This document shows, piece after piece, positions 4,471-7,250 of a DNA stretch of 64,000 bases (the first letter of the stretch is position 1; the number at the start of each line of letters is the position of its first letter). The stretch covers positions 3,023,670 through 3,087,669 of the forward strand of contig OZ253534.1 of the NCBI GenBank assembly GCA_965262355.1. Reading direction: 5' to 3'. The stretch comes from Candidatus Multivorans sp. GTDB lineage: Bacteria; Acidobacteriota; Thermoanaerobaculia; Multivoradales; Multivoraceae. Under the pieces are notes generated by a model that saw nothing but the letters and a program-made list of their open reading frames with translations, searched no databases and was not told the DNA's origin. A program made the position numbers and the translations under genes.

Positions 4471-4560
4471 CCCAGGTGGCGCGTTTCGCGCCACCTGTGA
4501 ACCGTAGTGTGCGCCTTCAAGGCGCACACTACGGAACGTAGCAGTTCGCTGCTACTTTCC
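4471..4560 (-). promoter_or_regulatory. Three-hairpin leader element copy 1 (sense to glyQS, ends about 38 nt before its ATG)
   Basis: Perfect palindromes caggtggcgcg-ttt-cgcgccacctg, gtagtgtgcgcc-ttcaa-ggcgcacactac, gtagcag-ttcg-ctgctac; homologous to 7165-7250 with compensatory stem changes. Confidence 0.55.
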
Positions 4561-4620
4561 GCCTCACCCTCCACTACAGGATCGACGCCATGGCCACCGC
4601 CCCTGCAACCGCAACCGCGA

Positions 4621-5002
4621 CCGCAACGCAACCATGCCTACCTCGTTTCCGGCGGATCCGAGGCGGTCGAAACCGCGATCAAGCTGGCCCGCCAAGCGCA
4701 GATGGCCCTCGGCCGACGTCCGGGGCTGGGGTCTCATGATGGTGCTCGAGCTCGTCGCGGACAAGCAGACGATGGCGTTCTTCGACCGCAGCGTCGATGC
4801 GCAGACGCTGTTCCAGTCCATGGCGCTCAAGCACGGTCTCATCATGTACAGCTCCCTCTACGGCTCGTCCCGCCAGCCCGCCCTGGCGCGCGGCCTGCCG
4901 ATCTGGATCTCGCCGCCCCTTTCCATCACCTCCGACGAGGTCGATGAGATGATGCGGAGGTTGCTGGCGATGCTCTCCGAGTGGGAGAGCCTGGTCCTGT
5001 AG
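4621..5002 (+). pseudogene. Class-III aminotransferase gene remnant (internally deleted, frameshifted)
   Basis: Frame 1 encodes HAYLVSGGSEAVETAIKLARQ (class III AT motif) then frame 2 encodes GLMMVLELVADKQT...ISPPLSITSDEVDEMM (AT C-terminus); about 350 aa of a normal AT are missing. Confidence 0.5.
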
Positions 5003-5102
5003 CGGCGACGCGAGGGGCAGAAGGGCGTCGGTCGGTCGAGAGCTCTCTTCCGGCCCCAACTGACTGGAAGCTGCCTTGGAGCGAACCGGATGACCGACCC
5101 GA

Positions 5103-6050
5103 TCAGTTCTCTTCGGCCCGGCCGCTCTCTTCCAGACGACCTTCCAACTCGGCTAGCCGCTCCTTGAGGGCCACCAGTCGCTCCTCCAGTGCTGCCATGT
5201 CGGGGCGTCGCTCATGGAGAAAGCGCCGTACGTGTTCGTGGCGCTCCTTCCACTCGTCGCCGTTGAAGTACTCCTGGATCTTCTCGTGCACGTCCTCGGG
5301 TCCTACGAACACGTCGACCTCGCCGTCGCCGTCAAGATCCTCCCGGCCACGCAGGAAGAAGGAAAAGGAACCGGGCTTCAGGTCCTGACGCGGCCGTTCG
5401 TCCAGGGTCGTACTGAGGATCTCGACCTTGCCGTCCCGCCAGATCTCGAGATCGGCCGGATCTCCGGCTTCGGCGCGCCGAACCATGGAGGTCAGCCGCC
5501 GAGAACTGGGCACGTCCTCGCCTTCGAACCGAGTGAGGATGTCGCCCACCTGAATGCCGGCGCGGGCCGCCGGGCTGTTCTCGGCAACGTTCGAGACCAG
5601 GACTCCGCTGTCCTCGGGCACCCCGAAGTGGGCGCGTAGCGGCTCGTTGAGATTGACGAGTTCAACGCCGAGATAGGCGCCGCCGAACAAGCCCACGGAA
5701 TGTCCGCTCTCCATGGTGTTCCGAAGTGCCTCCTCCAGGGTCGCCCCGGCGCCCCTCGCGCTGATGCGGGCATTTGCCAGATCCTCAGCAGCGGGAATCT
5801 TGTCTCCTAGCACGAACACGAACGAGGGCTCGTCTCGACCAAGCGCGCGGGCCAGACTCGCGGCTTCCTCCCCAGAGAGGACCTTGGCTCCGGACTCGCT
5901 GAGAACCCTGATCTCGGGCGGAATCTCTGGTGTCTCCTGGGCGAAGGCGCCCGGCGCCCAAGCCAGGGCCAGCGCTGCTGTCAAGGTGAGGACAAGGGGG
6001 CGGAAGCGAATGCCGGTTGCATTGCGAGCGGGAAGGCTGTTCGTGGTCAT
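5103..6050 (-). CDS. Periplasmic PDZ-domain protein with signal peptide and acidic coiled-coil C-terminus
   Basis: Signal peptide LTLTAALALAWAPGAFAQE; PDZ core GVLVSNVAENSPAARAGIQVGDILTRFEG; last gene of sigma/anti-sigma operon. Confidence 0.65.
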   Translation of the reverse strand: MTTNSLPARNATGIRFRPLVLTLTAALALAWAPGAFAQETPEIPPEIRVLSESGAKVLSGEEAASLARALGRDEPSFVFVLGDKIPAAEDLANARISARGAGATLEEALRNTMESGHSVGLFGGAYLGVELVNLNEPLRAHFGVPEDSGVLVSNVAENSPAARAGIQVGDILTRFEGEDVPSSRRLTSMVRRAEAGDPADLEIWRDGKVEILSTTLDERPRQDLKPGSFSFFLRGREDLDGDGEVDVFVGPEDVHEKIQEYFNGDEWKERHEHVRRFLHERRPDMAALEERLVALKERLAELEGRLEESGRAEEN

Positions 6051-6062
6051 TGCGTGAATCTC

Positions 6063-6494
6063 CTATTGAATCCTGCGGCCGGCAACGGCGGTGTACCGCA
6101 CCGGTAGTGGTTCGATGTCCCGCAGATCGAAGAGGACTTCGGTCTGGGGGTCGATGGACACCGGCACGAAGGGCTGGGAGTCCAAGGCCAGTCGGCGCAG
6201 CGACTCCAACTCCTCAATGAGTTCCCGGTGTTCGGATTTCAGTTGCTCGATGCTCTCCGCCGTCATCGGCGCCGGTTCGGGCGCCGACTGCCGGGCCCAC
6301 CAGGCGCCGGCGGCGGCCGAGGCGATGACTACAGCGACGCAGGCCGCGGCGAAACGCAGTCGTGCGACTGGCGGGCGGGCCTCATCGGCCCGGACGCGCC
6401 GGAGAACGTCGGCCGTGAAGTCCGCCGAGGCATCGACGCGGGGCAGGCGCTTCAGATCCGGGAGCGCGCGAGGGGTTCTGTCAGAATCCTTCAT
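6063..6494 (-). CDS. Anti-sigma factor (single-pass membrane protein)
   Basis: MKDSDRTPRALPDL... with one TM segment (AAACVAVVIASAAAGAWW); ATG overlaps sigma stop (ATGA at 6491-6494). Confidence 0.5.
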   Translation of the reverse strand: MKDSDRTPRALPDLKRLPRVDASADFTADVLRRVRADEARPPVARLRFAAACVAVVIASAAAGAWWARQSAPEPAPMTAESIEQLKSEHRELIEELESLRRLALDSQPFVPVSIDPQTEVLFDLRDIEPLPVRYTAVAGRRIQ

Positions 6495-7030
6495 CTCTCT
6501 CCTCCGTTCCAGTACTCGCTCAGGTCGTCGCGAAGCAGGTTCTTGCCGCGGTGGACCCTCGACTTGACCGTCCCTTCGCGGCATCCGAGGGTCTTGGCGA
6601 TGCGCGCGTAGGGCCAGCCTTCGATCTCCCTCAGCACGACGGGTGCGCGGTAGTGAAGAGGTAGCCGTCGAATGGCTCTGGTGACGGCGTCTACCGCCTC
6701 GGAGCCTAGTGCGGTTCTCTGCGGCGAGGGGACCGGCGCACGCTGCCGGTGCTCCGCGGTCAGTGACGGCAGCAGACCGCGCCAGCGGGCGGCCTTGCGT
6801 TGCTCGCTGCGAAGCTGGTTCGTGGCGATGCGGAACAGGAACGCCTGGAACTGGCCCCGTTCCCGGTAGCGGCCGGCCGAACGATAGACGCGTACGAAGG
6901 CGTCCTGCGCCAGGTCTTCGGCGCGTTCGCGGCTGCGGGTCATCTGGGTGAGGTAGTTCACGAGGGGGTTCTTGTAGCGGTCCACCAGGTCGGCGAACGC
7001 CTGCTCGTCGCCCTGCTTGACGCGCGCCAT
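6491..7030 (-). CDS. ECF (sigma-70 family) RNA polymerase sigma factor
   Basis: MARVKQGDEQAFADLVDRYKNPLVNYL... region 2 and region 4 (EGWPYARIAKTLGCREGTVKSRVHRGK); upstream in-frame starts exist up to 7156. Confidence 0.8.
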   Translation of the reverse strand: MARVKQGDEQAFADLVDRYKNPLVNYLTQMTRSRERAEDLAQDAFVRVYRSAGRYRERGQFQAFLFRIATNQLRSEQRKAARWRGLLPSLTAEHRQRAPVPSPQRTALGSEAVDAVTRAIRRLPLHYRAPVVLREIEGWPYARIAKTLGCREGTVKSRVHRGKNLLRDDLSEYWNGGER

Positions 7031-7164
7031 GAGCCGTCCGTCGTCCGCGGCGCGGTCCACGTGGGCCGCGCCCGCAGGGGCGGTCATCTGCGCTGGGGTG
7101 CTTCGGAGCTTCGTCGGCGCCGCCAGCGGGTCGGGCCTGAGCGCGGCCACGGGCATTTCACTCT

Positions 7165-7250
7165 TACAACGCGTGAGCGCGTGAAGTGTTCCGTTTCGTG
7201 CGCCTGAAGGCGCACGAAACGGTTCGCAGGCGGCGCGAAACGCGCCGCGT
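7165..7250 (+). promoter_or_regulatory. Three-hairpin leader element copy 2 (sense to enoyl-CoA hydratase gene, about 65 nt before ATG)
   Basis: acgcg-tgag-cgcgt, ttcgtgcgcc-tgaa-ggcgcacgaa, gcggcgcg-aaa-cgcgccgc; shares spacer acggttc(a/g)cagg with copy 1. Confidence 0.55.

Follow-up and report, generated by a model that had tools for sequence, protein, structure and literature searches.

Two similar hairpin elements in the genome of a Candidatus Multivorans sp. (contig OZ253534.1) probably belong to a mobile repeat. They lie 5' of glyQS and of a crotonase gene within a stretch of 64,000 nucleotides with 67% G+C, here called the window, and an earlier note on this DNA had described them as a conserved leader element. 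With a probability of about 0.7, we read them instead as copies of a small, noncoding, intergenic, and modular mobile repeat of Acidobacteriota of the Thermoanaerobaculia/"Ca. Multivorans" type, similar to repetitive extragenic palindromes (REPs) and bacterial interspersed mosaic elements (BIMEs), and not as a gene-specific leader. The repeat is gained and lost between close relatives, and it can chain, nest, and land in coding sequence. A REP/BIME-like family had been the fallback of the earlier note, and it is the reading that the evidence supports.

The two elements proved homologous, as had been proposed. The reverse complement of positions 4440 to 4580 aligned with positions 7150 to 7290 (blastn E = 2.7e-07), the shared core consisting of GTTCC, hairpin 2, the linker ACGGTTCRCAGG, hairpin 3, and TGGG. 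Covariance model R1 scored copy 1 at 68.3 bits (E = 1.6e-12) and copy 2 at 62.0 bits (E = 3.7e-11). The core pattern GTGCGCC-N3-6-GGCGCAC matched twice in the window and in none of 100 shuffles. The compensatory substitutions were also confirmed. Three stem positions of hairpin 2 differ between the perfect 15- to 16-bp stems of the two copies, each with the complementary change on the partner arm (AGT/ACT versus TTC/GAA), and hairpin 3 adds one further compensated pair (T-A versus C-G). Of the three hairpins that had been described, only hairpins 2 and 3 are common to both copies; the stretches described as hairpin 1 (4538-4555 of copy 1 and cgcgtgagcgcg of copy 2) show no homology to each other and lie outside the family. 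Both copies are thus real, and a third copy in the window had been overlooked. The copies of the window genome and their parts are as follows.

4468..4537, minus strand: copy 1 (type B), found with R1; its 3' end lies 33 nt 5' of the glyQS ATG (4434)
4502..4534, minus strand: hairpin 2 of copy 1, a perfect 15- to 16-bp stem in the computed fold; 100% complementary inverted repeat I1
4473..4497, minus strand: hairpin 3 of copy 1, CAGGTGGCGCG-AAA-CGCGCCACCTG, an 11-bp stem in the computed fold
4533..4537, minus strand: 5' junction pentanucleotide GTTCC of copy 1, which matches GTGCC already present at the empty site of contig L208
7188..7256, plus strand: copy 2 (type B, 3' end GGGATG), found with R1; its 3' end lies 58 nt from the start codon
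7191..7222, plus strand: hairpin 2 of copy 2, CCGTTTCGTGCGCC-TGAA-GGCGCACGAAACGG; I1 inverted repeat, 100% complementary
7227..7251, plus strand: hairpin 3 of copy 2, CAGGCGGCGCG-AAA-CGCGCCGCGTG, with a single internal G/G mismatch
31799..31870, minus strand: copy 3 (type A, slightly degenerate), 81.9 bits with R1
L001:16314-16386, 1.9 kb past the left edge of the window: fourth copy of the window genome, between the genes for a formylglycine-generating enzyme (FGE)-sulfatase and HMG-CoA synthase

The measured distances of 33 and 58 nt replace the 40 to 75 nt given before. The loop of hairpin 2 in copy 1 reads TGA on the element strand, and glycyl-tRNA synthetase (GlyRS) domains were confirmed in the product of the glyQS gene downstream. 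Copy 2 is flanked by the divergent genes for an extracytoplasmic function (ECF) sigma factor (6491-7156, minus strand) and enoyl-CoA hydratase (crotonase; ATG at 7315, plus strand). Copy 3 begins about 30 nt past the stop codon of rarA/mgsA (31767), 5' of a nucleotidyltransferase gene, and is antisense to both of these plus-strand neighbors.

Filled and empty sites in close relatives

A GlyRS search led to contig L208, which encodes a GlyRS 90% identical at the protein level and a glyQS gene 89% identical at the nucleotide level. Its gene order is that of the window: crotonase, ECF sigma, anti-sigma, PDZ, aminotransferase, glyQS, MFS, MGMT, FGE-sulfatase, and HMG-CoA synthase. Three copies of the window genome, at glyQS, between the ECF sigma and crotonase genes, and between the FGE-sulfatase and HMG-CoA synthase genes, are absent from L208, and the first two of these are clean empty sites. 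With slashes marking the junctions, the glyQS locus of the empty L208 reads ...GTAGCAAGGTGTTACCGTGCC / GCCCGACCGGCGAAAGGAGCAGCGGATG, and that of the filled L023 reads ...GTAGCAAGCTGGTACGGTTCC / (about 66 nt)...CTGGGTTC / GCCCGACCGGCGAAAGGAGCAGCGGATG. The junctions themselves are ...CCGTGCC / GCCCGACC when empty and ...GGTTCC / body...GGGTTC / GCCCGACC when filled. The ECF/crotonase spacer reads ...GCGTGAACTGTTCC / ACGCTGGGTGCGACGGGCTAAACTCC in L208 and ...GCGTGAAGTGTTCC / (GTTTCG...GTGGGATG) / GGCGCTGGGGCTACACTCC in the window, the junctions being ...TGTTCC / ACGCTGGG when empty and ...TGTTCC / body...GGGATG / GGCGCTGGG when filled. In both clean comparisons the body sits directly 3' of a preexisting GTKCC and the flanks are otherwise intact; neither a target duplication nor terminal inverted repeats were seen in these two cases.

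L208 also carries a copy that is absent from the window genome. This is a long form of about 141 nt (L208:9170-9430 versus L001:15393-15530) in the lipoprotein signal-peptide region of the FGE-sulfatase gene, where it adds 50 codons in frame. Excising it in silico restored a plausible signal peptide (MTVSALVLVAACLLAAVAC...). Over the approximately 17 kb of synteny shared by the window genome and L208, all four copies differ. The glyQS copy is absent from L020 as well, though less cleanly. No copy was found at the glyQS loci of L211 to L213, and the more distant relatives (L211 to L216) all lack one at glyQS. L002 and L028 differ further in an MFS_2 transporter gene whose 3' end carries a copy; both gene and copy are present in L002 (988-2559) and absent in L028 (1356-1366). 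The L002 copy overlaps the final 25 or so codons of the MFS_2 open reading frame (ORF). The insertion is immediately 5' of a PhyH-family gene; another copy of the repeat, in inverted orientation, is 51 nt away.

The junctions bear on a further explanation, a conventional miniature inverted-repeat transposable element (MITE) moved by a DDE transposase, with a target duplication of either 4 to 5 bp (GTKCC...GTTC(C)) or 9 bp (L208). In its favor, pentamers of similar sequence border most copies (GTKCC at the left end, GGTTC(C) at the right end), and the in-gene copy of L208 (L208:9203) has a 9-bp direct repeat, CTCCGCTCT, at its flanks and no GTKCC. Against a MITE stand the absence of terminal inverted repeats and the end of copy 2 in GGGATG, without the right-hand GTTCC repeat. 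In addition, the left and right pentamer variants do not covary within copies, and 8- to 9-mer flank repeats are near chance in GC-rich DNA and missing from other copies. We consider a MITE of this kind quite improbable.

The earlier note had also placed copy 1 at the truncation point of an aminotransferase remnant. The same juxtaposition occurs in L023 and L208, in which the class III aminotransferase gene is intact, and the position of copy 1 is not a truncation point. The remnant in the window (4591-5002) is a pseudogene with broken frames and only a short Aminotran_3 match (profile positions 86 to 110); it is degraded internally and keeps its 5' region. About 660 bp of the window correspond to about 5 kb in L020, which indicates that DNA was lost from the window genome at this place.

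Size, anatomy, and pairing of the family

A scan of representative genomes with a pattern built around the linker and hairpin 3 returned 37 loci. About 28 of these are acidobacterial metagenome-assembled genomes (MAGs), and the remaining loci are chance matches. The record titles of the acidobacterial loci name Thermoanaerobaculia, "Candidatus Multivorans," Holophagales, Vicinamibacteraceae, and unclassified Acidobacteria, MAG names being an unreliable guide to phylogenetic breadth; many of the carriers have bin names suggestive of sponge or coral sources. Four alphaproteobacterial loci (L011, L016, L022, and L034) share only hairpin 3, followed by ...GGGGATGAAATGGGAATGCGGTGCGG, and were set aside as probable chance matches. 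Judged by their flanks, they probably resemble a cobalamin riboswitch core.

A covariance model, the check proposed by the earlier note, was built from 18 copies and searched against the window and the scan loci. It returned 38 strong copies of 42 to 102 bits in approximately 20 acidobacterial genomes, so that the family has at least 38 members. These copies occupy intergenic spacers or gene edges, with the exception of one in-frame intragenic copy. Five strong copies fall outside the scan pattern (L026:1394, L013:3055, L002:2480, L002:4469, and L007:65). Their loops (GA, GAT, GATT, ATGT, and GCTG) indicate genuine conservation of the hairpin 3 stem (GTGGCGCG/CGCGCCAC) alongside a variable loop. 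A loop-tolerant pattern run over about 1.1 Mb of unrelated metagenomic and viral DNA recovered four further real copies (L051, L102, L127, and L143), none of them viral, and otherwise mostly chance matches. Rfam 15 gave no match across the whole window at gathering thresholds; at E-value thresholds the best matches were generic hairpins with 15 to 26 bits against cutoffs of 45 to 128. The literature that we searched contained no description of such a repeat in Acidobacteria. Four copies were counted in about 68 kb of the window genome, and 1 in 115 kb of the relatives sampled via glyQS.

The unit is directional and about 66 to 72 nt long. From 5' to 3' it consists of the GTKCC pentanucleotide, hairpin 2, the GGTTC linker, hairpin 3, and a GGGTTC or GGGATG end. 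The stem of hairpin 2 varies freely in sequence yet stays paired, and its loop (YGA) and foot are conserved. The stem of hairpin 3 is nearly invariant in the family, with a variable loop of 2 to 4 nt.

Copies cluster, with three in 3.7 kb of L002 and two in 2 to 4.3 kb in each of L013, L026, and L007. Head-to-tail chains with extra hairpins occur in L015, L021, L013, and L036. A long form of about 125 to 141 nt with a third covarying hairpin occurs in L006, L019, L029, L036, and L208; a single orthologous context for L006, L019, L029, and L036 was considered and rejected, as BLAST showed that they share only the longer (about 125-nt) form of the repeat. The window further contains a simple copy from a second, related family of repeats, here family 2.

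2847..2902, minus strand: family 2 GC-rich hairpin repeat, GGAACTGGGTGCGCCGGCC-CTCT-GGCCGGCATCCGG..., directly 3' of glyQS; matches L010, L013, L021, and L032

The main element is nested in the loop of a family 2 hairpin in L051, L102, L127, L007:65, and L001:16314. A general outer closing stem, which would form a three-way junction, was tried and rejected (flank pairing of -21.3 kcal/mol versus -20.5 kcal/mol in mismatched controls); the clear cases of an outer stem are the copies nested inside the second hairpin repeat. As a separate observation, a 3.2-kb insertion between convergent genes distinguishes two 95% identical genomes (L007:3077-6324 versus L005:2181-2189), and a lone hairpin-2-like palindrome lies near its left edge (L007:3175-3215).

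Pairing is maintained throughout the family. In the 38-copy alignment, 93.6% of pair cells held standard pairs and 16 of the 25 pairs showed changes on both sides. None of 500 shuffles matched the observed pairing values, and sliding the partners by 1 to 3 columns lowered pairing to 27 to 50%. The 38-copy alignment was fitted to the model and its figures lean towards structure; a MAFFT-based count on 18 copies agrees with them.

The way in which stems change between orthologous copies was informative. At the ECF/crotonase site, the window and L020 have flanks with 87% mean column identity over the aligned region and an almost identical linker and hairpin 3, and hairpin 2 is wholly replaced. 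The L020 variant of hairpin 2 is one that occurs at an unrelated locus in L009, L012, and L027. At glyQS, a block of four consecutive base pairs differs between the window and L023 (TAGT/ACTA versus CGCG/CGCG), and the element is otherwise identical except for the loop. Such block changes fit either replacement by or conversion from another member of the family or independent insertions into one target, and they do not fit the stepwise compensatory evolution of a leader. It follows from this pattern that the compensatory changes, which the earlier note had taken to argue for selection on structure, are real and that they do not demonstrate selection on mRNA structure.

Orientation, neighboring genes, and rival explanations

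An element that lies between divergent genes is necessarily sense to one of its neighbors. Copies 1 and 2 both occupy such positions, and their sense orientation upstream of start codons, on which the leader interpretation had leaned, therefore carries no weight. In codirectional spacers, about 6 copies were sense and 5 antisense, approximate figures that depend on crude gene calls; window copy 3, L010, and L002:4469 are unambiguously antisense. Transcription direction makes no difference to the element. Selection for an RNA on one strand would be expected to permit G·U pairs and to exclude A·C. The ratio of G·T to A·C mismatches was 24:14 (P = 0.14), and 12:9 when one copy per orthologous group was counted. 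The neighboring genes are diverse and include glyQS, metG, lysS, purC, and genes for an M42 peptidase, an HpcH aldolase, MFS and ABC transporters, GNAT proteins, luciferase-like monooxygenases, and an amidase, among others. Many copies lie between divergent genes. Scans with the sigma-70 promoter consensus and for terminators found nothing at either element, the terminator scan performing at chance level, and promoter or terminator function was discarded on these empty scans. No U tract follows the hairpins, whose 3' tails are GGGTTC or GGGATG.

A cis-regulatory RNA leader would place these hairpins in the 5' untranslated region (UTR), where they would control the transcription or translation of glyQS and the crotonase gene. 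The covariation is strong, copies 1 and 2 and many family members end 22 to 60 nt 5' of a start codon on the same strand, and three aminoacyl-tRNA synthetase genes (glyQS, metG, and lysS) are among the neighbors. We nevertheless consider such a leader very improbable. Both loci are empty in the syntenic L208, glyQS is empty in L020, and the more distant glyQS loci carry no copy; we regard this presence and absence in close relatives as the decisive evidence on the question. Approximately 5 of 11 codirectional contexts are antisense, there is neither an excess of G·U pairs nor an Rfam family, and the neighbors are unrelated, with lysS lying upstream of its copy, not downstream. One copy lies within a coding region, and covariation is equally expected for DNA hairpin repeats. 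The element is like T-box leaders of aminoacyl-tRNA synthetase genes in standing 5' of glyQS and metG and in having several covarying helices. It is unlike them in lacking an Rfam match, being dispensable in close relatives, occurring in both orientations, and having unrelated neighbors.

The hairpins might instead serve the host as an orientation-independent RNA element, namely an exonuclease barrier, a processing site, or a terminator without a U tract, inside operons as well as between them. A barrier or processing role is one of those proposed for REPs in mRNA, and an element retained in this way could still be mobile in origin. On either strand the hairpins have very high stability (z = -5 to -8 versus shuffles), copies occur in either orientation in short codirectional spacers, and hairpin 3 is 80 to 90% conserved between genomes versus 66 to 76% for coding DNA. 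Retention by the host is, however, rather unlikely given the missing U tract and chance-level terminator scan, the rapid turnover between close relatives, and the many copies in divergent promoter regions, where there is no 3' end to protect. The conserved asymmetric loop and linker sequences would also be superfluous for a generic barrier.

A double-stranded DNA site was considered as well, either as operators of a dimeric regulator or as three GAAC motifs read by an ECF sigma factor or a response regulator. Two observations would suit it. Hairpin 3 is a conserved perfect palindrome, and the 5' edge of copy 2, read on the opposite strand, coincides with an ECF-type promoter motif, GGAAC-N16-CGTT, upstream of the ECF sigma gene. 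The motif is also present at the empty L208 site, which means that it predates the element or is independent of it, and copy 1 has no matching -10 element. The spacing of the hairpin 3 half-sites ranges from 2 to 4 nt, and those of hairpin 2 vary freely yet remain complementary, which points to a folded strand and not to a protein half-site. Such a site is barely conceivable as the explanation of the family.

The ECF-type motif is of interest in itself. It occupies 7168-7192 on the minus strand, 12 nt 5' of the annotated start of the ECF sigma gene (7156), and is conserved in L020 as well as in the empty L208; its -35 box is the GTTCC beside which copy 2 sits. The short distance from motif to start implies either a very short or absent 5' UTR or an ECF sigma start codon further downstream.

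Two other classes of structured element were rejected. Conserved bases reminiscent of hammerhead- and hepatitis delta virus (HDV)-like ribozymes (a GAUGAC loop and GAAAC and GTT motifs) lie in closed loops and not in junctions, and the HDV score was 18.5 bits against a cutoff of 50. The attC site of integrons is a single long imperfect hairpin that pairs the inverse core RYYYAAC with the core GTTRRRY. Inspection of the alignment showed two separate hairpins, GTKC motifs that are direct and not inverted, and GTTC[AG]C, which is unlike GTTRRRY.

Mode of movement, related systems, and the setting of the repeat

The junction signature and the conservation of structure over sequence suggest that the unit is probably moved as single-stranded DNA. 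A trans-acting enzyme of the HUH/Y1 type would bind the folded hairpins and cut beside the conserved pentanucleotide. This class includes the REP-associated tyrosine transposases (RAYTs), which act on REPs, and the TnpA proteins of the insertion sequence (IS) group IS200/IS605. Stems would stay paired because the hairpin itself is the recognition feature, and recombination between members of the family would homogenize or exchange copies; there would be no need to invoke selection on an mRNA leader. Transcribed in either direction, the hairpins would fold and may incidentally affect mRNA stability, with no gene-specific control of glyQS or the crotonase gene.

Several observations weigh against a REP/BIME-like mobile repeat with this mechanism. 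No HUH/Y1 transposase or other partner was present among the approximately 75 proteins encoded around the copies and in the window, where a single gene per genome is easily missed; the sole transposase met in the protein scan was an unrelated IS110. Hairpins 2 and 3 are unlike each other, and the left and right ends of IS200/IS605 elements usually resemble each other. The 9-bp repeat CTCCGCTCT at the in-gene copy of L208 looks like a target duplication and is at odds with peel-and-paste transposition. As to copy number, the exact pattern has only 1 or 2 matches per complete chromosome, and the 64 kb surrounding glyQS are free of copies in three relatives that are more distant. Complete chromosomes with the family include OZ246956.1, OZ220688.1, OZ242222.1, and OZ250177.1. 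Many copies lie 22 to 33 nt 5' of a start codon, which would allow a secondary effect on expression. The direction of change at glyQS is ambiguous. Identity at glyQS makes the window an outgroup to the other three genomes (L023, L208, and L020), and the copy is present in this outgroup and in one of the three ingroup genomes; this requires either two losses of an ancestral copy or two gains at one and the same GTKCC. Under either history the copy is dispensable.

A more specific version would be a hitherto undescribed kind of miniature single-strand mobile element, confined to symbiont Acidobacteriota and with an enzyme of its own, inserting beside GTKCC and in the loops of other hairpin repeats; the block of hairpin 2 that is hypervariable yet always paired would be a specificity or addressing feature and more than drift. 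The last point draws on the four consecutive pairs swapped between orthologous copies whose other 60-odd nt are identical. We consider this version unlikely.

The preferred reading, a REP/BIME-like mobile repeat, can be set against known families. REP elements with RAYT (Y1/HUH) transposases include GTAG- and CGTC-tagged superfamilies, and most dimers of REPs are arranged head-to-head or tail-to-tail (Di Nocera et al. 2013, PMC3733652). Like REPs, the acidobacterial copies are short, GC-rich, imperfect palindromes with a conserved unpaired tag beside the stem. They are intergenic and occasionally intragenic, vary in stems and loops within the family, form families of tens of units with clusters and mosaics, and keep hairpin structure over exact sequence. 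They differ from REPs in their tag, which is GTKCC/GGTTC where REPs have GTAG or CGTC (copy 1 does contain a GTAG, an incidental one that is found neither in copy 2 nor in the consensus), in the fixed head-to-tail pair of two different hairpins, in the many copies between divergent genes (REPs favor 3' ends), and in the lack of a RAYT in the DNA sampled. REP families have tens to hundreds of copies per genome, and the RAYT gene is typically flanked by REPs.

As in E. coli BIMEs, rhizobial intergenic mosaic elements (RIMEs), and pneumococcal BOX elements, different hairpin modules are chained in variable combinations (L015, L021, L013, and L036), and the long form and the nesting in a second hairpin family recall the same mosaics. 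In BIMEs, the modules are REP units that alternate in orientation with defined linkers. Unlike these, the modules described here are always co-oriented and head-to-tail, each following a GGTTC/GGGTGC-like tag, and there is no sequence similarity to the BIME, RIME, or BOX families. The ends of IS200/IS605 elements and of the palindrome-associated transposable elements (PATEs) derived from them have subterminal hairpins, no terminal inverted repeats, and insertion 3' of a short, unduplicated target. The repeat shares these features, with a hairpin at each end, and its filled and empty sites, like theirs, differ by exactly the element. It differs in that its hairpins are dissimilar and 0 to 6 nt from the ends, in that it is much shorter, in that no parent IS or TnpA was met in the sampled DNA, and in the one insertion with a 9-bp direct repeat. 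By behavior and anatomy, REP/BIME-type mosaic repeats and IS200/IS605-derived miniature elements are the closest systems. The repeat works like a REP-type element, yet it lacks some defining features of each of these systems, and membership in a specific named family is not established.

Some neighboring features of the window are recorded here. An IS110-family element (about 700-2488 relative to L208) lies between the MFS gene and the 3' spacer of glyQS. Its transposase ORF occupies 785-2167 on the minus strand (DEDD_Tnp_IS110 and Transposase_20), and the hairpin-rich stretch of about 320 nt upstream of it could encode a guide (bridge) RNA. The earlier note had suggested that IS elements target the family; this element is not within any copy. 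Short inverted matches (715-737 versus 2880-2905) fall outside the IS110 element. The noncoding stretch 2489-2752, which separates glyQS from the MFS gene, shares 78% identity with L208 across 269 nt, unusually high for local intergenic DNA, and could be an unannotated small gene or RNA. A giant ORF at 9158-15850 (2,230 amino acids, adhesin-like, with Big/cadherin/PKD-type repeats) contains 1.1 kb that is absent from the near-identical metagenome contig L001. The positions concerned are 9138-10266 and 12759-14820, and the ORF has internal repeats of about 580 bp with 89% identity. These differences point to variation in repeat number between assemblies or strains.

No new regulatory principle emerges from these results. 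A mobile hairpin repeat, rather than a riboregulator, can be the source of textbook compensatory changes next to start codons, which calls for caution in motif hunting in GC-rich genomes. The repeat family now has a working covariance model. In symbiont Acidobacteriota, a little-studied group, it marks hot spots of insertion and deletion as well as breaks in synteny, and it is a potential marker for strain typing. If its enzyme were found, the world of REP/RAYT and IS200/IS605 elements would extend to a new phylum and a new target motif.

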